Of a stretch of 64,000 bases of DNA, positions 7,289-17,318 are shown one piece after another. Under the pieces are notes generated by a model that saw nothing but the letters and a program-made list of their open reading frames with translations, was not told the DNA's origin and made no database searches. Each line of letters begins with the position of its first letter. The first letter of the stretch is position 1. This DNA comes from Algibacillus agarilyticus (lineage in GTDB: Bacteria > Pseudomonadota > Gammaproteobacteria > Enterobacterales > Alteromonadaceae), in assembly GCF_003286125.1 (NCBI RefSeq), contig NZ_QMED01000002.1, positions 212,634 to 276,633 of the forward strand, written 5' to 3'. The position numbers and the translations under genes were made by a program.

Positions 7289-8518
7289 TTAGCGCAGCGG
7301 TATGCTACGTAAGTGTGTCTCGATTGCTTCAATCATCGACTTGGTAAGCGGTAAATGTGCTTTTTCTTTCGCCCAGATTTCATGGAAACCAGCTACGGTT
7401 TGCTTGGCAGTATCTAACACCAATTTTTCTGGCAACATAGCTTTAGCCGCTAAATGTGATAACTCATCCAGCGTGAAATCACTGAATTTTTTACTACGGC
7501 TCACCTTTAACGACGCACTATCATCAAAGATATAAGGAATGGTTGAGACAAAGTCATAAGCGGGCGCAATCGATGCGGTGCGCTGGTCTTTATAAATCAC
7601 AGACCAATTCTTCAAATGCATATCAGCATTACCAATTAAGGTATTGAACACCAACCTGCGCGTAAATTCTGCTATGTCCTCGTCTTGACCTTCGATGCCG
7701 ATAACCTGAGCAATATTCCGCATACTGGCTTTTTTGTATTTATCTTGAGGATAGACCCCAAAAACTTGCGCAAAATCCTCAATATGTATCGCTTGACCAT
7801 CAACACGGTCAAAACGATTGATCACAAAGGCCTGAGCATTTTTAAAAGAGTCACCAAATTTGCCAATGCCATTTGGGATATTAGCAATCTGATTAATAGG
7901 GAGTAGCCGCGTTTCTGGCACATCCATTCCCAACATTCGAGCCAGTTCCATCATCGAATATTCATTTTCTGGCACAGCGTCAAATCGAGATGACGGCAAT
8001 TTCACAATCCAAGAACCGCCTTGACCGGTTGCAGGGATGGTAAAACCACCGTTAGCCTGTTGCACAGCTGAAAACTTCAACTGCACACCCGCCAATGAAA
8101 AACGCATTGGGGCTTCAATTTTCGTTTCATCGTCAATGTCTTGATTCGCATTAGGCGGCAGTGCTTCACCATCAGCAGGTTCAACCGTGATCGCGCCAGC
8201 TAAATCTTGCCCTAACACCCACAATAGAAAAAACTCGCGCGCGGGGTTAACACCGGCACGCTCTGCCAGGTAATAGCGCATCGTTTCTTCTGGTAAAAGG
8301 TTGGAGAAAAACGGAGTTAACTTGGTTTGAGTAGGTTTAAAATGAGTCAGCAAGCCGCCTAGCGCATCTTTAAAGCCAAGCCCTAACACAGGCCGCGATT
8401 CGTCATTAATGTACGAATCCATAAAAGCAAATAGTGTTCTGTCATTGCCCACGTTAGTGATCGTTGCGATGGGTTCGCCGTAGAGCAAAACGTTTAACGT
8501 AGAGACATGATTAGTCAT
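7289..8518 (-). CDS. hipA: HipA-family serine/threonine kinase toxin (type II TA)
   Basis: SLAGVQLKFS (HipA N-domain), catalytic DMHLKNWS motif, 409 aa; 8-bp overlap with the upstream HTH gene. Confidence 0.85.
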   Translation of the reverse strand: MTNHVSTLNVLLYGEPIATITNVGNDRTLFAFMDSYINDESRPVLGLGFKDALGGLLTHFKPTQTKLTPFFSNLLPEETMRYYLAERAGVNPAREFFLLWVLGQDLAGAITVEPADGEALPPNANQDIDDETKIEAPMRFSLAGVQLKFSAVQQANGGFTIPATGQGGSWIVKLPSSRFDAVPENEYSMMELARMLGMDVPETRLLPINQIANIPNGIGKFGDSFKNAQAFVINRFDRVDGQAIHIEDFAQVFGVYPQDKYKKASMRNIAQVIGIEGQDEDIAEFTRRLVFNTLIGNADMHLKNWSVIYKDQRTASIAPAYDFVSTIPYIFDDSASLKVSRSKKFSDFTLDELSHLAAKAMLPEKLVLDTAKQTVAGFHEIWAKEKAHLPLTKSMIEAIETHLRSIPLR

Positions 8519-8837
8519 CGTCGTCTTCCTCTAACTGATATGCAGGCGACATTAGCTCAGCTTCATCGTTGATACCGTTGTTGCTTGAGCCTTGGCTACT
8601 TCGAATGATCGACTTAATGGCAGGTACAGATTTTTTTGGTGCGACAAATAACTCTAGGTCGAGCACACGGGCAAGTGCAATCAAACTGGACATTCTTAAA
8701 TCAACGCCGCCAGACTCGATTTTCGAAATATGGCTTTGCGGTACACCCGAACGAGCACTTAATTCTCTCTGGCTAAACCCCTTACGTGCCCGAGCTTCTC
8801 GAAGGGCTTCTAATATCGGCTTTGTTACATAGCTCAT
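8511..8837 (-). CDS. hipB: HipB-like XRE-family HTH antitoxin
   Basis: LREARARKGFSQRELSARSGVPQSHISKIESG is a typical XRE HTH; overlaps the hipA start; start chosen at the internal Met MSYV, so the ORF may extend to 8870. Confidence 0.7.
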   Translation of the reverse strand: MSYVTKPILEALREARARKGFSQRELSARSGVPQSHISKIESGGVDLRMSSLIALARVLDLELFVAPKKSVPAIKSIIRSSQGSSNNGINDEAELMSPAYQLEEDDDD

Positions 8838-9366
8838 TTCGATACGCCTTGATACATCACTAAAGAACAATTATATACAAAAACATATCACCCTAATCCC
8901 GCGAACACAAGAATGATTACCTATTGCATATCACTAGTATATTTTGATATGTAACTATAGATAAACCATGACATACGTGATCACTTGCTACATTGAAAGT
9001 GCGCACCCAGTAAAACGTTTAAGTTAACAGGTACACAAGGCTCATCAACGTTAGAACACACCAATATCGTGATGCCCTTGTACTTCACTCAATATTTGCC
9101 GCTAAGATGGTAAAAGCGCTTTAGTCACGGATCCATAAGTAAATTTAAAATAGAGACGTGCCTCAATAATGATCCACCACGTTGGGTAAATCATTTCGCA
9201 TGCCAAGATAGATAAATATTAAATAACCAATACCAGTGAATTTAACCAAATAAACAGATGATCAGCTACACGCTTAATGAGTACTTAAAGCCAGAACAAC
9301 TCAGCCCATATCTAAAGTACTAGCTCAAGTACATATCTAAATAAAGCGCGTATCTAAAGAGAAAAC

Positions 9367-10365
9367 CTAAAACGCAAACTTAAACGTTTGCGACAATAAA
9401 GGCTGAATATTCGCGTTTATAGGTAAAGGCTCATTATTTTCAAAACGTTTTGGATTTACCGTGACAAATCCCCAAAACTCTAAAAAACGCATCACAAAAC
9501 GAGATTCAATCAAAAAGCCTAAATTATCTTGCTTAGATGAAAGTTCGCTTGCCGATACTTCTTCTACCAACGCCGGAAAAGCCACACAAACCTCAGCGAC
9601 TAACTGATCAACCGAACCATGCTTTTGCAAGCGCCAAAGCATAAACACCCAAAAAAGTCGCAAATTAACATCATCGGCAAAACCATCAAAGTATCCCCAG
9701 TTATATTGACCCGTCGCCGCTTTTAACATAGGCACATAAAAAGCATTTAGTCCGTCTTTTTTATACTGTGCTTGGGCCGACTTTTTAACATGAAAACGTC
9801 CTGCTTTATGATAAATAATACCGGCTAGCTCAGCCAATATACGGGCATAATGCAACGCATTAAATTTATCTTCATTACTACCCGCAAACTCACTAATACT
9901 GATATCGGCATTAAACTCAGCCACGGCAAACTCAGGCAATAAAGCGCTCGCCTTAGCCACGAGTTTGGCCGGTAAATTACCTTTAGCGGTCAATTTAAAC
10001 GCGCCATCTTGCTGCATTGCTTCATCTAAAATAAGCGCTAAATAACGCATCACCGGGCTAGCCGACAAATCATCAGGACAACGAATAACCACATCGGCTA
10101 ACTCATCAAACGGCGCATACAACCAATTAGATATTTGATCGGGTGTTAAACCACAAAAATCATCAAGCCCCTGCATATTTTGCTTTGTCACTTTATGTTG
10201 AACAACCTGATCTAACGCATCCATATTCAAACCTGGAGAGCTCGCAACCACTTGAGCTATATCATCAAATACCGCGGCATGTTGCCTCGCAATAGAATTC
10301 ATACAACAACGTTTATATTTTTTGCCACTGCTACAAGGGCATAAATCATTACGGCCAATTTTCAT
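9367..10365 (-). CDS. SEC-C motif domain protein (YecA-like N-terminus), function unknown
   Basis: N-terminal CPCSSGKKYKRCC metal-binding SEC-C motif; rest unrecognised. Confidence 0.55.
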   Translation of the reverse strand: MKIGRNDLCPCSSGKKYKRCCMNSIARQHAAVFDDIAQVVASSPGLNMDALDQVVQHKVTKQNMQGLDDFCGLTPDQISNWLYAPFDELADVVIRCPDDLSASPVMRYLALILDEAMQQDGAFKLTAKGNLPAKLVAKASALLPEFAVAEFNADISISEFAGSNEDKFNALHYARILAELAGIIYHKAGRFHVKKSAQAQYKKDGLNAFYVPMLKAATGQYNWGYFDGFADDVNLRLFWVFMLWRLQKHGSVDQLVAEVCVAFPALVEEVSASELSSKQDNLGFLIESRFVMRFLEFWGFVTVNPKRFENNEPLPINANIQPLLSQTFKFAF

Positions 10366-10725: not shown

Positions 10726-11031
10726 TCATCTTGAACCTTCTAGCAATTTTATATTTTGCAGCTTGATACCCACTTCATCATGGGCAGCCATTTCTGCAAA
10801 ATTATTCTCCATGCCAAGAACGGCCATCACTTTTAAGTAAGTGCCTATGGCAACGCCAGGATCACCTGCGAAAACTTTGTTCACGGTTTTATGATCAAAG
10901 CCAGTACGTTCACACAGCAGCTTTTTAGTAAAACCACGTCGTTTCATCGCCAACAGCAAATCTTCACCAAAATGAGTCAGGATTTTGCGCTGCTTTGGAA
11001 ACAGTACATTGTGCAAATCGCGCTTAGCCAT
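10726..11031 (-). CDS. XRE-family helix-turn-helix transcriptional regulator
   Basis: FTKKLLCERTGFDHKTVNKVFAGDP HTH-like segment; 101 aa; operator-like repeats directly upstream. Confidence 0.55.
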   Translation of the reverse strand: MAKRDLHNVLFPKQRKILTHFGEDLLLAMKRRGFTKKLLCERTGFDHKTVNKVFAGDPGVAIGTYLKVMAVLGMENNFAEMAAHDEVGIKLQNIKLLEGSR

Positions 11032-11300: not shown

Positions 11301-12776
11301 TTACTCACACGTTAATTTAGTTACTCTATTTTCAAAGTTTAATAACTCAACTACTCGGCTATGATCTGGATCGTATATCCACTCATGATCAAATAGACTT
11401 TTTAATCTATGATTCATAAAGCAAGAGTCGATAACTAAGGAGTTAAACTTATTGCCCCCTTCTCTCAGTTTTTCAATTTTATCCAACAGACTAGTCGGTA
11501 GCCCAGACATAACAAAATCGGAAATAATCAACATATCTGCATTTTTATACTTATCTGTTTCCATAGCTGAAATCCCTTCGCTAATAGCTGGAGCAACATC
11601 AGTGCCGCCATGAAATGATTTTTGTAAAAAACTAGTTAAGTTCTTTAATGCAAAATCACCTGATAGATCTAGTGTTTCAATGCTTGTTGAAAAGTTAATT
11701 AGATAACAGTTTCTATTTTCTTGTTTTGCTTTCACTACCATGAGCATTGTAACTGCTTTTGCAATAGTTTCTGGTGCACCATACATTGAACCACTTGTAT
11801 CAACACAAATGATCATGGGACCTTTAGTCTCTTTTTCAGTTACTGATTGTTCAACTTCTATTTCGTATTTGCTCTCAATAAATTGCGTACCTTTCATATC
11901 AAAACACATGAGTCCTGATTCAATATATTTAAGGTCAAATAGTAAAGATGTATCCGGATCCGCCATTAGTGCTAACTCACTAGGTAAAGCATGTTCAATA
12001 TCCTTGCCTAGCCGTAAACCAATGATCTCTTCTTTAGAGTTGATATCAGGTACAGGGACTCTTTCAGAAACTGATTTCTGTATTATTTCAATTTTCTCAC
12101 TTTGTTTAACTTGGTTAATTCGCCCCATCATTTCTAATAAGTCTTGAACGCCTTGGTCATTTTTTAAACATTCCAACCAGCGCTTGATAGGAGCGATATC
12201 GTCAATGGACAAACTTCCTTTAGATAAGTCAAAAAAAACACCCTGTTCTAACCCTAAAGACTCTAACGTATGGAATAACTCTAAAAGTGCATCAAGGCTT
12301 TCAAATAAACTTTTTAAAAACTCTTCTCTCAACCTTCTTAACTGTTCAAGTTCCCATTGAGATCTTAATTTGTCTAGTAACTTCCTCCTTTCATTTCGAA
12401 GTAAACTATGCGTACTTTGTAAGTCTCGTTCTACTTTGTCATTAGGAACGGTTTTCTTCATAGAAGTGATTTTAATAATCTCTTGCTCCCAGAATTTATT
12501 AAATTGATTTCCAGAATTGAGACATAACGCCTTATAATCATTAATTTCATTTCTAATAACTTCTATATTACTTAAGCTATTCAGCGAGGTGGTAAATATA
12601 GCCTCATCCTCAAAGTAAGGGTAATCAACATCGAAGCTTCGTTTGGTATCGCTTTGCCAATTTGAGAGGCGCGCCTCTACTTTAACTCTAGTTTCAGGAC
12701 TCGCTAGAAGAAAATGATGATACTTATTTTTAATTTGTATCATCATTGTTTGAGCTTGTTGCTTTATATTACACAC
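11301..12776 (-). CDS. viaA: VWA-domain protein, ViaA-like partner of RavA
   Basis: C-terminal VWA domain with MIDAS motif DTSGSM; 8-bp overlap with the upstream MoxR ATPase gene; size (491 aa) like ViaA. Confidence 0.75.
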   Translation of the reverse strand: MCNIKQQAQTMMIQIKNKYHHFLLASPETRVKVEARLSNWQSDTKRSFDVDYPYFEDEAIFTTSLNSLSNIEVIRNEINDYKALCLNSGNQFNKFWEQEIIKITSMKKTVPNDKVERDLQSTHSLLRNERRKLLDKLRSQWELEQLRRLREEFLKSLFESLDALLELFHTLESLGLEQGVFFDLSKGSLSIDDIAPIKRWLECLKNDQGVQDLLEMMGRINQVKQSEKIEIIQKSVSERVPVPDINSKEEIIGLRLGKDIEHALPSELALMADPDTSLLFDLKYIESGLMCFDMKGTQFIESKYEIEVEQSVTEKETKGPMIICVDTSGSMYGAPETIAKAVTMLMVVKAKQENRNCYLINFSTSIETLDLSGDFALKNLTSFLQKSFHGGTDVAPAISEGISAMETDKYKNADMLIISDFVMSGLPTSLLDKIEKLREGGNKFNSLVIDSCFMNHRLKSLFDHEWIYDPDHSRVVELLNFENRVTKLTCE

Positions 12777-14337
12777 TACAAAGAACCTCTAAACGTTGGC
12801 AGTCTTTAATGCTAAGTTCAATATTTTTTAGCTGGTTTTCAATAGCAACCAAGGGGATTTTTAATAACTCTTCATTAATAAATGGCGAAGCTAACTGAGC
12901 TTTATATTCGTTATTTTTATCTTGGCAATTTTTTAATAAGACCATTAATTTTTTTCTTATTTCAATTACCGAGCCGTTTAAAGAGTCTATAAGCCGAGTA
13001 TTAATATCGTCTTTTTTATCACCTTTATGAAATAAGATAGTAGGCGTGAAGGTTACTGTATCTTCATAAGCATAATTATACGTCTTAAGGTTTTCAATTT
13101 TGCAGGATCCTTGCCCATTAAATGTACAGTCAAAATGAGAAAGCTCATTTAAATTATTATCAAGTGGGAAAAACGTATCTGTAGTCTTTAAGTTGGAATA
13201 AGGTAAAAATACAATTTCTTTTTCAGTATTTATTGTTCTATGGTGTTTGTGCTTAAACTCTAAAATAGCTTTAAAATATTTTTTATTGCCTATTTTTTCT
13301 GTTTTATAAACATCATTTCTAAAAAAAAGCTCCTTGTGAATTTCTTTATCTAATGATTCTTTTTCTTTATCTAATTCCTCTAGACTAATATCTGAAGTAA
13401 AACCAACGGCTTTAATAGCATCATGGACAATTTTAATAACAGGCTCATGATTATCTGCAGTTGTCCAAATACAATGGCTTAAAAGCAACGCATCACTATG
13501 GTTAGTTTCTTTTCTGTCATTAAAAAAAGCTGACGCTTTAAGTAATTGCGCTGCCTTTTGCCAACGTCTGTCAGAAACATACACACCTAACTCTTCAAAC
13601 TGCTCTGATAGCGATTTACGAATAGCGTGGATAATCAGTAATGTTTCTTTAGATAGGCAAACAGTATCTATCTTCTTACGCCAGCTATTCCACTCATTTT
13701 GAGACACCGCAATTTTACTCGGCAGCTTTATATTGGCTTGAGTGGGTTTACCGTTTATTAAATTCTCGAAATTATCTTTACGTGCAATTGGCGCAACCAT
13801 TAAACGGATGATAAAACGATCATATAATGCATCTAAGCCCTGATTGCCTTCAGGGGTTTCATTAGATGCCACAATTAATGCTTTCAATGGTGTATTTTCA
13901 ATCACGTCACCATTCTTAAACGTTTTCTCATTAATCATTGTTAATAAGGAATTTAAAATAGCTGGACTCGATTTCCATATTTCATCTAAAAAAGCAAACT
14001 CAGCTTTGGGTAAGTAGTTACTAGTTTTTCTCGTATATTTATCTTCTTTAAGCGCTTTAATAGAAACGGGTCCAAACAACTCTTCGGGTGTACTAAAACG
14101 GTTCATTAAATATTCAAAGTATGCTGGTTCTTTAAAAGCACAAGCAATACGACGAGATATTAAGCTTTTGGCCGTACCTGGAGAGCCAAATAGAAAAGTG
14201 TTTTGATTTGATAGCGCCCCTAACAATGATATTGATATAATATCTTCTCGTTCATGCATACCTGTTGATATATGCTCTACAATGTTTTTAATCCTTGCTT
14301 GTAAACTCATTTCGATTGCCTTTTTATTATGCTTCAA
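12769..14337 (-). CDS. ravA: MoxR-family AAA+ ATPase RavA-like
   Basis: Long colinear match to E. coli RavA (FLFGSPGTAKSLISRRI, AFEYLMNRFSTPEE, YLPKAEFAFLDEIWK, LIVASNE); 522 aa. Confidence 0.85.
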   Translation of the reverse strand: MKHNKKAIEMSLQARIKNIVEHISTGMHEREDIISISLLGALSNQNTFLFGSPGTAKSLISRRIACAFKEPAYFEYLMNRFSTPEELFGPVSIKALKEDKYTRKTSNYLPKAEFAFLDEIWKSSPAILNSLLTMINEKTFKNGDVIENTPLKALIVASNETPEGNQGLDALYDRFIIRLMVAPIARKDNFENLINGKPTQANIKLPSKIAVSQNEWNSWRKKIDTVCLSKETLLIIHAIRKSLSEQFEELGVYVSDRRWQKAAQLLKASAFFNDRKETNHSDALLLSHCIWTTADNHEPVIKIVHDAIKAVGFTSDISLEELDKEKESLDKEIHKELFFRNDVYKTEKIGNKKYFKAILEFKHKHHRTINTEKEIVFLPYSNLKTTDTFFPLDNNLNELSHFDCTFNGQGSCKIENLKTYNYAYEDTVTFTPTILFHKGDKKDDINTRLIDSLNGSVIEIRKKLMVLLKNCQDKNNEYKAQLASPFINEELLKIPLVAIENQLKNIELSIKDCQRLEVLCSV

Positions 14338-14352
14338 GTTATCTATAGCTTT

Positions 14353-14391
14353 AAAAAATTAAGTGCTCACAATTCTTATGAGCACTTTTTC
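14353..14391. terminator. Bidirectional rho-independent terminator
   Basis: AAAAAA-AAGTGCTCA-loop-TGAGCACTT-TTTT; downstream of the RelE-like transcript on the minus strand. Confidence 0.6.
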
Positions 14392-14595
14392 TATTAGTTA
14401 ATGGTTATGGTTGTTACTTTTTTTGCTGCTGAATTTGCTTGCTACGGTTACCTTGAGCCTGATCGTATTGACGATTAGTACCTGAAGTCCCTTTATTAGC
14501 GTTTTGTTGATTAGCTGCATTGTCTTTAGGTTTAATATTTTTACTCATTTTGTTTTCCTTAATATTGTTAAATTGAAAATCACGAAGTCACATGA

Positions 14596-14913
14596 CTAAC
14601 GCCTTCGTCGATTTAATAATGTCGTAAAATGCTGGCGAATATAGATACCTAAGGCGGTCCAACATTCACCTTTAACCCCTATTAACATTCGATAGCTATG
14701 GCTAAGACGCATACGATAAAGGTTTGGTAAACACCGGATTTTTTTTGCTCCGAAAGATTGGGGGTGCCTGCCTGACTGTAATTGACCAAGCACTTCTGAG
14801 CTTTTTGTTAGCACTGAGTTAGGGAGGATTTTACTTGAGCAGGCACTGTAGCCATTTTTATCAGAAGGCGCGTCTAAGCTAATAAGCAACTTTTCTATAG
14901 ACTTAAGCATCAT
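14596..14913 (-). CDS. RelE/ParE/HigB-superfamily toxin-like protein
   Basis: C-terminal LYRMRLSHSYRMLIGVKGECWTALGIYIRQHF fits the RelE/ParE fold consensus (YR.R....YR.I.......v.l.....R); weak call. Confidence 0.4.
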   Translation of the reverse strand: MMLKSIEKLLISLDAPSDKNGYSACSSKILPNSVLTKSSEVLGQLQSGRHPQSFGAKKIRCLPNLYRMRLSHSYRMLIGVKGECWTALGIYIRQHFTTLLNRRRR

Positions 14914-15125
14914 GCTTTCCCGTAACCATTTTATTAGCCGAGAGAAATTGGGACATTAATTGATATTTTATTGCTTTATCTGCGGGACTTAAGTGCTTAG
15001 CATTAAGTAAACAAAGCAAAATTAAATGATACATATTGAGCTCCTGTTCATCACCGCACTATGCGATGACTTCAGGAGCAAGTATCAAACTGTGAATTTC
15101 ACAAAAAAGGGTTTAATGAAAAAAA

Positions 15126-15797
15126 TTAATATTTATTTAAGAGCTCGTTGAATTCTTCGTATTCTTTGCGTTTAGCTTGATAAAGAAGGTTTAACCACTG
15201 TCCGTCACCATTAACAAATTCAGCAGAAGCCTGATCTAAGATCTGACCTAGCTCACCAAATTGATTATTTATAACCGCCTTAATCGCGCTATCGTAAGGT
15301 GAAGGGGTATTATCTGCAGTAATAACGTTGGCAATTAATTCAACAGAGGTAAACTCTCCAGCACTAAAAGGGTAAGGTATTTCATCTTTTACCCAGTCAA
15401 TATTGCCTTTAGATAAAAATTCACCTAATTCAGGCAACCGAGACTCTAATGCCTGATAAAGCATTTTTTTAGCACGCCATTCAGCAAAGTGTTTTTCTAG
15501 CTTATCTTGAGGGATCTCCGCCCCATTTAACCAGTTTGTTACGAGTTTTTTATCCTCAAACAAAGTATCAAGAATGATTAAATTTCGGATAAAGTTTTTA
15601 TTGCCGGCTCGAATAGGACGAGATGTGTACTTATCAGCTTCAGAATATAAATCAGCTTCGTCTAAAAGCTGTTCTTTTAAGCTTTCATCTTTAACATAAT
15701 AATTTAGTCTATTACGTAAACGTTCCGGTAAAAATCTTTGTTCAATTCCTAACGCTCTTGATGCAATTGCAGCAATACTATTACCTTTTTTAGCCAT
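15126..15797 (-). CDS. Hypothetical cytoplasmic protein (223 aa), no recognised domain
   Basis: Clean ORF, AT-rich codon usage matching its neighbours, last gene of a tightly packed three-gene cassette. Confidence 0.5.
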   Translation of the reverse strand: MAKKGNSIAAIASRALGIEQRFLPERLRNRLNYYVKDESLKEQLLDEADLYSEADKYTSRPIRAGNKNFIRNLIILDTLFEDKKLVTNWLNGAEIPQDKLEKHFAEWRAKKMLYQALESRLPELGEFLSKGNIDWVKDEIPYPFSAGEFTSVELIANVITADNTPSPYDSAIKAVINNQFGELGQILDQASAEFVNGDGQWLNLLYQAKRKEYEEFNELLNKY

Positions 15798-15806
15798 TAT
15801 AGTCCC

Positions 15807-16268
15807 TTAATGGCAATTCAATGCTGCTGATATATAAGCTAAAGCTTCAGTCTCATTCATATTATTCATACCCCTGGCAATAACTAGGTATTGAATATAC
15901 TGCTCACCTACACCACAATTATACGCCACCTTATATATGGCACCGGTACACATTCCTGCAAGCATAGCTTCCTTTAACGTAGTACTCATATTAAGCGGGA
16001 GAAGTGCTTCTTTTTGCTCAACAAATTCAGAGCAAGCTCTAGATAACTCTTTGAAAGCCTGTGCCTTATAAGTGCTTTTATAATAAGTATTTTGATAACC
16101 AATACACTGCCCAGCAAGAAAGGCTTCGGTTATTGACGTTGACATTTTACTGAGCAATGCATTTTCCTGCTCATCTCGCTCTTCACATGCTTTGTCAATA
16201 TCAATACCTACTGCAGTGGCAGATAAACTATAAAAGCACAGTATTAAAACAATTATGAAACGAAACAT
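15807..16268 (-). CDS. Hypothetical secreted protein with an internal two-fold repeat
   Basis: N-terminal signal peptide (MFRFIIVLILCFYSLSATAVG); duplicated Cys-containing module LSKMSTSITEAFLAGQCIGY / LNMSTTLKEAMLAGMCTGAIY. Confidence 0.5.
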   Translation of the reverse strand: MFRFIIVLILCFYSLSATAVGIDIDKACEERDEQENALLSKMSTSITEAFLAGQCIGYQNTYYKSTYKAQAFKELSRACSEFVEQKEALLPLNMSTTLKEAMLAGMCTGAIYKVAYNCGVGEQYIQYLVIARGMNNMNETEALAYISAALNCH

Positions 16269-17176
16269 TACTTTATGGCCTCAACGTTTGATAAATTAGC
16301 TGTTTCTTCTGGTGGAGCTTCTGGTGGAGCTTCTGGTGGAGCTTCTGCAGAGTGACCGAACATAATAAAAGTGAAAATACACAAGCCAATAATTAACACA
16401 TCGTCACGCCAAATTGGCTTAAATTCCCAAGCTATAAAAGCAGGAATCGCAATAAGTGTCACTGCATAAAGTAAGGTTGTTAATGAACAAATACTGAAGA
16501 GACTCGTTGTAAATCGAATAGGAGTTGTTGCACTTACTTTATAACTTCTAATTTTTGTTTTTACTATGCCAAAAGTAGTCCATAAGATTGCAGCCAATAA
16601 TAACAGTACGATGCCGTTCATTTGGCTTAACACTGCAACTACAACACCACCAATAACGAGCACTAACGTTGCAAAAATAAGCAGTAGGAAATGGCAGAAG
16701 GTAAATACCCAAGGAATAGTTTTTTCTTGCTGCTTAATATGTTTGTTTCTAGAAAAGAAATAAAATTTCACGTTTTTATCCTCTTCGTCTTTAGATTTTT
16801 TTTCTTGGTGCAGTTGAGTCAAGTAACTCACAAGAGTTAAGTTAGCCGACTGGTATTTCTCAAAACCGGCCTCAGATAGTGCAAAGTCATCATGCTCCAG
16901 AAGCAAATTATCAGTTTTAGTTAAATACTCTAACTTCTCATTGATATCAGGTGTAAAGCCGTTTATTTCATCAGCACAGTTATTTTCAGAAATAGAGAAG
17001 CCAAGATCTTTTAATAGTTGCTGAAGATTAAGACGCCATTGAGCAATAAGCTCTAATTGAGTTAACTCCGGTGTAGAAGATATTTCTTCTTCGGAGGATG
17101 CTTTCTCTAACTCCACATCTACTTTAGTTGAATTTTGCTGACATTCATTAACATTTTTTTTAAAGGACGATTCCAT
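16268..17176 (-). CDS. Hypothetical membrane protein (4 predicted TM helices) with a C-terminal (APPE)n repeat tail
   Basis: Hydrophobic stretches at about aa 150-260; stop codon overlaps the start of the next gene; C-terminal EAPPEAPPEAPPEE. Confidence 0.5.
   Translation of the reverse strand: MESSFKKNVNECQQNSTKVDVELEKASSEEEISSTPELTQLELIAQWRLNLQQLLKDLGFSISENNCADEINGFTPDINEKLEYLTKTDNLLLEHDDFALSEAGFEKYQSANLTLVSYLTQLHQEKKSKDEEDKNVKFYFFSRNKHIKQQEKTIPWVFTFCHFLLLIFATLVLVIGGVVVAVLSQMNGIVLLLLAAILWTTFGIVKTKIRSYKVSATTPIRFTTSLFSICSLTTLLYAVTLIAIPAFIAWEFKPIWRDDVLIIGLCIFTFIMFGHSAEAPPEAPPEAPPEETANLSNVEAIK
16307..16348. repeat. 12-bp tandem repeat TTCTGGTGGAGC x3.5, in frame (APPE repeats)
   Basis: Read directly; lies in the 3-prime end of the 302-aa membrane-protein gene. 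Confidence 0.8.
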
Positions 17177-17318
17177 TCTGGTTTCTTTAATAATTACTAC
17201 TTAAAATCATTATCGCACTATAGTTTAAAAACTAAAATAATAATTACATCCACAATGGTTCGTAGAACAGACACTTGAGATAAATATTCAGCATTGTCTT
17301 TGTGTTTAACTATCGTGG

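Follow-up and report, generated by a model that had tools for sequence, protein, structure and literature searches.

What do three tightly packed genes on the minus strand of an AT-rich island in Algibacillus agarilyticus do for their host? The genes, here called A, B and C, lie in the window, meaning the whole stretch of 64,000 nucleotides that was analysed, and an initial annotation had compared them to toxin/immunity or envelope-associated defence cassettes. Our results suggest that the trio is most likely an envelope-linked switch for downstream antiviral or antiviral-like genes rather than a toxin/immunity pair, because it always fronts such genes, with a near-invariant DNA control site in between.

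The three genes and their products

The three open reading frames that had been reported were recovered with the same boundaries, together with two further features:

16268..17176, minus strand: gene A, inner-membrane protein of 302 aa (from hydropathy and charge)
16307..16342, minus strand: perfect 3 x 12-nt tandem repeat, which codes for the (APPE)3 tail of A
15807..16268, minus strand: gene B, secreted periplasmic protein of 153 aa, with two Cys modules and an extension
15126..15797, minus strand: gene C, soluble all-alpha protein of 223 aa, candidate operator-binding regulator
17208..17236, minus strand: promoter-like stretch upstream of A (TTTAGT...TATAGTGCGATAATG)

Full-length homologues with 45-100% identity (23 for A, 28 for B and 85 for C), found solely in marine Gammaproteobacteria, indicate that A, B and C are real genes and not chance reading frames. 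As first noted, none of the three matches a named family; Pfam, NCBIfam, PHROGs and PADLOC gave no match, Rfam matched nothing on the region, and when PDB sequences were searched with a profile of C or of its N-terminus alone, nothing but noise came back.

Protein A has a cytoplasmic N-terminal domain of ~150 aa, four transmembrane (TM) segments (about 164-182, 187-205, 226-248 and 257-277) and an acidic C-tail. Hydropathy thus agrees with the four helices proposed earlier, and the positive-inside rule predicts that both termini are cytoplasmic. No transporter signature was found in A with Pfam or NCBIfam. The N-terminal domain is confined to the main clade, and in the divergent and remote lineages A consists of the 4-TM part alone (140-190 aa). 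The (APPE)n tail pointed out before is present, as (APPE)3, but the expansion is private to this genome; the homologues carry a single unit, and hence it is no family feature.

Protein B is, as had been described, a signal-peptide protein with a duplicated Cys module. The signal peptide is of the Sec type, each of the two C-x26/27-C modules shows the motif [ST][ST]xxEAxxAGxCxG, and there is a third Cys pair in addition. All six mature Cys are invariant in the 28 homologues, and three disulfides are predicted. Protein C has neither TM segments nor Cys. B and C are indeed 9 nt apart. The junction between A and B, previously given as ATGA-type, is in fact a TAATG junction with an overlap of 1 nt and not 4 nt.

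The stretch upstream of A is conserved in L005, L017 and L015, the closest relatives of the window, and has a looser, A/T-rich and -10-like counterpart in L006 and L019. It contains no copy of the palindrome described below and is likely the promoter of the trio itself.

Conservation and genomic setting

The initial annotation held that a lack of conserved co-occurrence would speak against its cassette. The opposite was found, as every one of the 49 related loci retrieved, from at least nine genera, has the order A-B-C. Apart from the trio and the module behind it, termed cargo from here on, no flanking genes are common across the loci, and the insertion sites vary (after gcvP, after glmS, in an ICE).

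The GC profile of the window confirms the AT-rich island: GC content is 0.32-0.36 over 11-17 kb vs mostly 0.37-0.45 (mean about 0.40) in the remainder, where a few other 1-kb bins are as low as 0.33-0.36. The island also carries HipBA and a ParE-like gene. A phage origin was considered and rejected, with no matches in 50,697 phage records, none in IMG/VR by protein or by element, no tRNA in the window and no integrase in the island.

Exchangeable modules behind a constant front end

Wherever downstream sequence exists, a variable module lies 3' of the trio on the same strand. It contains prokaryotic viperin (pVip) in ~23 loci, with or without its kinase VakA, PDC-M51, a candidate system of a B12-radical-SAM enzyme and a kinase, in ~13 loci, and a pair of a MoxR ATPase and a vWA protein (MoxR-vWA) in three; the pair of the window also follows the trio in L005 and L004. 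Other radical-SAM pairs also occur, and the majority of cargos combine a radical-SAM enzyme with a nucleotide kinase. Profile matches support the assignment of pVip (NCBIfam viperin_w_prok, 337 bits vs a cut-off of 180; PADLOC pVip, E 1e-102) and of PDC-M51A (E 2e-171). The coupling between trio and cargo persists into very remote lineages. The part of the first description that saw a defence-type setting therefore stands, with pVip/VakA, PDC-M51 or MoxR-vWA adjoining the trio, while its toxin/immunity part found no support.

No viperin-family radical-SAM gene is present in the window itself. C proteins that are 86-89% identical to the C of the window front pVip instead of MoxR-vWA (L015-L018), which shows that cargo is swapped behind a constant front end. 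The pVip/VakA genes, PDC-M51 and the RavA-ViaA-like pair are partners of the trio as cargo, not its relatives, and pVip is also found without the trio. Expressed alone, pVip genes protect E. coli (10.1101/2023.09.13.557418), so the trio is not needed for catalysis.

A palindromic, operator/promoter-like element follows C

Directly after C lies the site that separates the trio from its cargo:

15081..15109, minus strand: cargo control element, immediately 3' of the stop codon of C, made of a T-run, a palindrome and a -10-like hexamer
15091..15103, minus strand: perfect, dyad-symmetric 13-bp palindrome TGTGAAATTCACA (TGTGAA-A-TTCACA)
15081..15086, minus strand: -10-like hexamer GATACT, its start exactly 11 nt from the centre of the dyad
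15040..15079, minus strand: 5'-UTR hairpin predicted by folding, whose 3' arm includes AGGAG, the Shine-Dalgarno sequence for the ORF that follows

All loci with sequence available beyond the stop codon of C have the element there. No other part of the locus is conserved as well, the mean pairwise identity being 0.95 vs 0.58-0.83 (about 67%) in the coding sequence of C. Eight lineages of C have differing palindromes. Symmetry is perfect in seven of them and broken by one mismatch in L046, and the half-sites vary in a compensatory manner (GTGAA/TTCAC, GTGGA/TCCAC, GTGCA/TGCAC, GTGCT/AGCAC). Each of the eight also has a hexamer, with A as its second and T as its sixth base, whose start lies exactly 11 nt from the centre. 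The symmetry reaches the bases beside the centre, which are unable to pair in an RNA hairpin, and this speaks for a dimer's site in double-stranded DNA. The reading of the palindrome as an RNA hairpin or terminator was rejected, given the symmetry up to the single central base and a T-run that lies upstream, not downstream, of it. CRP, LexA and sigma-54 sites were likewise rejected, as the spacing is wrong and the half-sites vary between lineages. No -35 hexamer is recognisable in the element, which leaves the spacer length undefined, and a sigma-70 scan did not flag the element.

A second copy of the element precedes the p43-pVip unit in loci where VakA comes first (p43 is a small ORF described below), and no extra copies were found with nhmmer before MoxR or PDC-M51A. 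In 7.3 Gb of plasmids the element was present in only three records, all of them trio-bearing, and 11 other plasmids carry pVip without trio and without element.

The hairpin that follows has a free energy of -25.2 kcal/mol (z -4.9). In an alignment of 36 sequences, 93.7% of the cells are paired and covariation is weak. The divergent loci L011, L012 and L013 have hairpins of other sequence at the equivalent place, and that of L004 is weaker. Together, T-run, palindrome, hexamer and hairpin make up a sharply defined control element of 90 nt.

The unit behind the element in the window

The cassette had been taken as self-contained. Instead, the unit runs on through the control element into the following genes, none of which had been linked to the trio before:

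14903..15034, minus strand: small ORF p43 (MYHLILLCLLNAKHLSPADK...), first gene behind the control element, overlapping the start of the ParE-like gene
14596..14913, minus strand: ParE-like toxin-domain gene (Pfam PF24732, E 5.7e-8, 33.1 bits vs a cut-off of 24.4)
14414..14548, minus strand: NQ44, an ORF for a 44-aa N/Q/K-rich peptide
14361..14387, minus strand: terminator-like hairpin, a 12-bp stem followed by a T-run, at the end of the proposed inducible unit
12769..14310, minus strand: MoxR-type AAA+ ATPase, RavA-like in its N-terminal half (Pfam bpMoxR, E 5.8e-51; AAA_5, AAA_lid_8), probably starting at the ATG at 14310
11301..12776, minus strand: ViaA-like partner of the MoxR ATPase, with a vWA domain (Pfam VWA_CoxE, VWA_2)

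At the peptide level, p43 is conserved between loci of the ParE and the pVip type and within the 80-aa proteins that the divergent group encodes, and it is missing in three remote lineages. It overlaps the ParE-like gene from upstream, the place considered for a cognate antitoxin, and also occurs in pVip loci that have no ParE-like gene. The latter gene is conserved in MoxR-type and PDC-M51-type loci, with a homologue in L013 (E 1e-16, 61 bits). NQ44 is highly conserved in 14 loci including the window, and annotated as a 44-aa gene in L001. Neither p43 nor NQ44 matched a family in Pfam, NCBIfam, PHROGs or PADLOC. The MoxR ATPase and the vWA protein both miss the equivalog level of their namesakes: the former reaches 331 bits vs an NCBIfam cut-off of 681 for RavA, with only residues 10-324 aligning and no match that takes in the C-terminal LARA region of RavA, and the latter 230 bits vs 500 for ViaA.

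In the window, the genes directly behind the element are thus p43, the ParE-like gene and NQ44, and MoxR-vWA lies beyond the terminator-like hairpin. The 12-bp stem of this hairpin is conserved in PDC-M51 loci, there without the T-run. A terminator between the regulated unit and MoxR-vWA counts against the regulatory reading set out below.

Is C the protein that binds the palindrome?

The sole genes common to all palindrome-bearing lineages are A, B and C, and C is their only cytoplasmic soluble member. Moreover, the operator variants track the clades of C. A one-to-one code between residue x in the LN-x-Y helix of C and the operator base was considered and rejected, since Ser occurs with both GTGCA and GTGAA.

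MerR-family regulators bind dyads in promoter spacers. In the structural model of C, the order of elements (a helix-turn-helix-like N-terminus, a wing-like segment and a long helix) appears similar to theirs, and five of the eight top Foldseek matches, the best-ranking ones included, are MerR-family regulators (3hh0, CueR, MtaN, BmrR), with E >= 0.75. By sequence, Pfam and NCBIfam detect no DNA-binding domain in C. In its N-terminal 130 aa, the MerR-type winged HTH (PF13411/PF00376) gave no Pfam match even at E <= 10, and hhalign of the C alignment against a six-member MerR profile, assembled by hand, returned a probability of 0.2%. Neither a WYL plus wHTH architecture nor an XRE-HTH plus metallopeptidase pair was found in A, B or C with Pfam, PADLOC or NCBIfam. 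A sigma factor was rejected as an identity for C, because the operator is dyad-symmetric and no Sigma70 domain is present.

Proposed mechanism and alternatives

We tentatively favour, short of calling it probable, the reading of A-B-C as a conserved front end that serves a modular antiviral locus in sensing and regulation and makes the cargo inducible, with C binding the operator and A and B acting as envelope sensor. C, probably as a dimer, would bind the 13-bp palindrome overlapping the spacer of a promoter right after its own gene, and this binding would repress, keeping the downstream cargo silent. A and B, presumably translationally coupled to each other with C close behind, would tie the activity of C to an envelope event such as phage attack; a possible route is that C is held at, or released from, the membrane by A/B. 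Where the cargo transcript begins, the stable hairpin would mask the ribosome-binding site and act as a second lock. Counting against this reading are that sequence searches detect no DNA-binding domain in C, that the element has no recognisable -35 hexamer and was not flagged by the sigma-70 scan, that no one-to-one code relates C to the operator variants, that covariation in the hairpin is weak, and that a terminator precedes MoxR-vWA in the window. A more specific version, which we regard as possible though somewhat doubtful, is that of an undescribed envelope-spanning switch consisting of a periplasmic sensor, a transducer with four TM helices and a DNA-binding regulator whose MerR-like family would be new or extremely divergent, through which viperin and the other cargos would become inducible on phage attack.

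Alternatively, the trio could be an autonomous envelope-level defence or exclusion module that travels with nucleotide-based defence, the element being a cargo promoter bound by a host factor. The layout over membrane, periplasm and cytoplasm recalls Kiwa or T4 Imm/Sp, the locus lies in a defence island, the trio has its own promoter-like region without the palindrome, and Kiwa offers the example of a 4-TM protein that, with its cytoplasmic partner, is proposed to detect phage at the membrane (PMC11785009). We nevertheless consider this unlikely: where downstream sequence exists, the trio was never seen without cargo directly downstream, nor the element without the trio, palindromes that differ by lineage would not be explained by a single global regulator of the host, and PADLOC gives no Kiwa or other match. 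Slightly less likely still is that A, B and C assist the cargo enzymes in their function instead of regulating them, for example as a membrane complex which exports, imports or compartmentalises the modified nucleotides from radical-SAM/kinase pairs or protects the host from them. Most cargos, with their radical-SAM enzyme and nucleotide kinase, and a coupling that reaches very remote lineages would suit such a partnership, but pVips work alone in E. coli (10.1101/2023.09.13.557418), the MoxR-vWA cargo contains no enzyme that modifies nucleotides, A is small, with four TM helices and no transporter signature, and the symmetric operator would be left unexplained.

The exchange of cargo exactly behind the element, and the two element copies that bracket VakA, could also be read as signs of a recombination site, with the trio as the fixed flank of a cassette-exchange hotspot and functionally unlinked to the cargo. 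This is very unlikely given that no integrase or recombinase lies in or beside the unit, that the spacing to the -10-like hexamer, the Shine-Dalgarno sequence and the start codon is fixed, and that the palindromes diverge together with C. The toxin/immunity cassette of the initial annotation, in which B would be a periplasmic immunity protein, appears extremely improbable, as the trio contains no toxin domain, no T6SS or secretion genes lie nearby, and B has no Rap1a/Tai4 match in Pfam.

Comparison with known systems

The known systems closest to the proposed front end include the WYL-family BrxR/CapW and RptR, which are dedicated repressors acting on inverted repeats or palindromes in defence promoters; like C, they are encoded at the margin of defence loci that are diverse and can be exchanged (PMC9122601; PMC12255303). 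C has neither a WYL domain nor a recognisable wHTH and no sequence or domain relation to them. They are single cytoplasmic proteins, whereas the trio adds obligatory membrane and periplasmic proteins and an RBS-masking hairpin. MerR-family regulators (CueR, MtaN, BmrR) bind a dyad operator inside a promoter spacer, an arrangement that the locus may share, and the model of C appears to have a similar order of elements. The locus differs in a shorter palindrome (13-17 bp vs about 18-22 bp), in having no definable -35 element or 19-20-bp spacer, and in the extra helical C-terminal half of C (~100 aa).

Kiwa likewise consists of a small multi-pass membrane protein (KwaA) with a cytoplasmic partner (KwaB), for which sensing of phage-induced membrane changes has been proposed (PMC11785009). 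Unlike the trio, it lacks a part in the periplasm and targets phage DNA itself, not via downstream genes; nor is there homology, as A, B and C matched none of the PADLOC families, KwaA/KwaB (DUF4868) included. Control of a cytoplasmic transcription factor by a membrane protein is familiar from RseA/RseB-sigmaE, where RseB is a periplasmic accessory, and from Mlc, which is sequestered by PtsG. No sequence similarity to these systems is known, C is no sigma factor, and A is no single-pass anti-sigma factor.

Implications

To our knowledge, little is understood of how bacteria silence antiviral genes that are costly or toxic and turn them on upon infection, and the few defence regulators that we know of (BrxR/CapW, CapH/CapP, RptR) are purely cytoplasmic. 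The locus offers a compact and testable candidate, in which three uncharacterised proteins and one element would couple the envelope to viperin and at least three other modules. If the proposed switch is real, it would be a bacterial counterpart of the signal-induced expression of viperin in animals, and the operator with its RBS lock would form a portable cassette behind which defence genes are exchanged. PDC-M51 and MoxR-vWA occupy the same slot as validated antiviral genes, which is indirect evidence that both are antiviral. The element could also serve as a search handle for further cargo.

The trio and its distribution

Three minus-strand genes lie where the initial annotation had placed them:

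16268-17176, minus: A, 302 aa, four hydrophobic segments
15807-16268, minus: B, 153 aa, Sec signal peptide
15126-15797, minus: C, 223 aa, soluble
16307-16342, minus: (APPE)3 repeat in the A tail, a perfect tandem of three 12-nt units

Their products largely resemble what had been described. The four hydrophobic segments of A agree with the four transmembrane helices proposed, and its charge distribution predicts that both termini are cytoplasmic. Only two short loops are exposed to the periplasm, the second of which carries the conserved motif AWEFKPxWRDD, a candidate docking site for B. Besides the signal peptide and the two Cys-bracketed modules already recognized, B has a third Cys pair, and all six cysteines are invariant among 28 homologues. 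C, taken to be cytoplasmic, is soluble by prediction. The A/B junction is not of the ATGA type but TAATG, with a 1-nt overlap, while the 9-nt gap between B and C was confirmed; the translational coupling that this spacing implies would fit a stoichiometric complex. The (APPE)n tail of A exists, but as a repeat private to this genome: A homologues carry one unit, and the tandem is a recent expansion. The AT-rich island was also recovered (GC 0.32-0.36 over 11-17 kb, against an average of about 0.40 elsewhere), and A, B and C are indeed without a match in Pfam, NCBIfam, PHROGs and PADLOC.

For B and C, 100%-identity matches exist in Algibacillus agarilyticus, the source of the window. Homologues (85 of C, 23 of A, 28 of B) are confined to marine Gammaproteobacteria, including Colwellia, Cognaticolwellia, Shewanella, Psychromonas, Pseudocolwellia, Pseudoalteromonas, Psychrosphaera, Endozoicomonas and one Oceanospirillales bacterium. 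When 1.84 billion representatives were searched exhaustively with a profile, only four C clusters scored below 1e-30, and another four, remote ones, came in near 1e-4; phage records and viral contigs gave no match. Components of 49 related loci were mapped by tblastn and ORF clustering. The initial annotation had staked its cassette on conserved co-occurrence, and the order A-B-C is kept in all 49. In a divergent group, whose C proteins show about 30% identity, and in remote lineages, A is reduced to its four-helix core (140-190 aa) and B to a single Cys module, which retains TTSxxEAxxAGxCxG. Apart from the cargo, ORF clustering revealed no flanking gene common to the loci, and insertion sites vary (after gcvTHP, after glmS, in an ICE next to AbiE).

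Cargo behind the trio

Every locus with downstream sequence carries a variable same-strand module, the cargo, 3' of the trio.

Cargo types
pVip, with or without the kinase VakA: about 23 loci
p43, ParE-like gene and 44-aa N/Q-rich peptide, then PDC-M51A/B: about 13 loci
p43, ParE-like gene and 44-aa peptide, then MoxR-vWA: window, L005 and the ICE-borne L004
Other radical-SAM pairs: L011, L043, L044

The assignments rest on strong matches for pVip (NCBIfam viperin_w_prok, 337 bits, cut-off 180; PADLOC E 1e-102) and PDC-M51A/B (PADLOC E 2e-171 and 4e-72). In four loci (L015-L018) C is 86-89% identical to that of the window, yet pVip lies downstream instead of MoxR-vWA; the cargo has therefore been exchanged behind a constant front end. 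Cargo also occurs without the trio, since pVip was present in 14 plasmid records and the trio in three. The trio without cargo was never observed.

In the window, p43, the ParE-like gene and the peptide gene NQ44 form a unit that ends at a terminator, followed by MoxR-vWA:

14414-14548, minus: NQ44, 44-aa N/Q/K-rich peptide (MSKNIKPKDNAANQQNANKGTSGTNRQYDQAQGNRSKQIQQQKK), with its own Shine-Dalgarno sequence
14361-14387, minus: terminator-shaped hairpin AAGTGCTCAT...ATGAGCACTT, 3' of NQ44

NQ44 has no family match, is highly conserved in 14 loci including the window, and always lies 3' of the ParE-like gene or is fused to the p80 protein (L004, L011). The hairpin, conserved in MoxR-type and PDC-M51-type loci, marks the exchange junction between these cargoes. 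Only in the MoxR type is the stem followed by a T-run, so read-through into the PDC-M51 enzymes is likely.

A DUF4145/Sel1/SEC-C protein often comes next after pVip. L016 (4149-5749) is a natural pVip deletion, in which p43 is fused to a C-terminal pVip remnant, yet the next gene, DUF4145/Sel1/SEC-C, has stayed intact. In the most remote trio-like locus (L041, 1849-2355), a non-enzymatic-looking, Cys-rich protein of 168 aa (PF27765 UCP032817-like; weak GRDP-like match) replaces the radical-SAM gene.

A conserved element between C and the cargo

A non-coding element lies 10-25 nt past the C stop in all loci and directly precedes the p43 unit in the window:

15091-15103: perfect palindrome TGTGAA-A-TTCACA, accompanied by a T-run
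15081-15086: GATACT hexamer, preceded by GTTT
15040-15079: hairpin GCTCCTGAAGTCATCGCAtagTGCGGTGATGAACAGGAGC, with a 3' arm that is the Shine-Dalgarno sequence of the following ORF

Over the first 25 nt of the element, which take in the T-run, the palindrome and most of the -10-like hexamer, pairwise identity averages 0.95; across the C coding sequence it is 0.58-0.83. In loci whose cargo begins with VakA, the element is repeated in full ahead of p43-pVip. The loci and the window contain no other copies, and among 7.3 Gb of plasmids only trio-bearing records carry it. The ribosome-binding-site (RBS) hairpin (-25.2 kcal/mol, z -4.9) is 93.7% paired among 36 sequences and too conserved for strong covariation. 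Hairpins of other sequence occupy the same site in the divergent L011, L012 and L013, and a weaker one in L004. The region has no match in Rfam.

Eight C lineages have distinct palindromes.

Palindromes by lineage
Main (window): TTGTGAA-A-TTCACA
Divergent group: TTGTGGA-C-TCCACAA
L046: TTGTGTA-A-TTCACAA (one mismatch)
L048: TTGTGCA-A-TGCACAA
L044: GTGCA-G-TGCAC
L043: TTAGTGCA-T-TGCACTAA
L049: TTAGTGCA-A-TGCACTAA
L041: TGTGCT-G-AGCACA

Changes are compensated in both arms, and the symmetry extends to the bases beside the single central nucleotide, where pairing in an RNA hairpin is impossible. Selection therefore maintains dyad symmetry at the level of double-stranded DNA, as is typical of a site for a dimeric DNA-binding protein. 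Each of the eight lineages has a hexamer (GATACT, CAAACT/CATACT, AATAAT, GACACT, GACACT, TACATT, AATAGT, GAAACT) with A as its second and T as its sixth base, and this hexamer always starts exactly 11 nt from the centre of the dyad. The operator would thus span about -29 to -17 of a promoter whose -35 region is T-rich and non-consensus.

A, B and C alone occur in all palindrome-bearing lineages; each of p43, the ParE-like gene and NQ44 is missing from some. Together with the facts that C is the sole soluble cytoplasmic protein of the trio, that its gene abuts the putative operator and that operator variants follow C clades, this argues moderately for C as the operator-binding regulator. A plausible recognition helix in C is the conserved basic and polar LPERLRNRLNYYVK; its residues do not, however, map onto operator bases by a simple code.

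Regulation or autonomous defence

We tentatively favour a switch: A and B would act as envelope sensors controlling C, which would sit on the operator of the cargo, and a second lock would come from the RBS hairpin. pVips alone act in E. coli (10.1101/2023.09.13.557418), and this activity without the trio argues for a regulatory rather than a catalytic role. A trio serving as functional partner of nucleotide-modifying cargo is accordingly doubtful. An autonomous envelope defence resembling Kiwa (PMC11785009), whose membrane sensor makes it the closest system in architecture, seems unlikely, if slightly less so; when tested, the trio did not belong to Kiwa. That the trio merely flanks a recombination hotspot is improbable, as the trio-cargo unit contains no recombinase. 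The toxin/immunity cassette suggested by the initial annotation ranks lowest, and we consider it very improbable.

Closest in function are the dedicated defence-island regulators BrxR (PMC9122601) and RptR (PMC12255303), to which the trio likewise did not belong. Under the regulatory reading, the trio may be a defence-locus regulator of this kind, one made of unrelated proteins and with parts that span the envelope. Searches of the literature turned up no account of the trio, the element or PDC-M51.

Neighbouring genes and atypical copies

A HipBA pair (7289-8870, minus) occupies the far end of the AT-rich island, beside yicC: a HipA kinase toxin of 409 aa and an overlapping HipB-like HTH gene (119 aa). 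Between this pair and vWA are a protein of 332 aa that has a SEC-C motif at its N terminus (9367-10365, minus) and a 101-aa Cro/C1-type HTH protein (10726-11031, minus). The SEC-C protein directly after pVip in pVip-type loci is a different one (DUF4145, Sel1 and C-terminal SEC-C, 435-453 aa).

In the ICE-borne L004 (7444-9999), beside AbiE and an integrase, an IS with a DDE_Tnp_1 transposase separates A' from B'. In Psychrosphaera algicola G1-22 (L010, 8758-13065), A, B, VakA and pVip are fragmented and C is intact, reflecting either a decaying locus or assembly indel errors. Some copies have other regulator genes as neighbours. A Phage_AlpA gene lies immediately upstream of A in L046 (4389-4772), and an upstream fragment in L044 (2-448) resembles, by eye, a WYL-type regulator. 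In Pseudoalteromonas (L040, 18590-18669), a protein annotated with a WYL domain lies downstream, as does a GmrSD pair.
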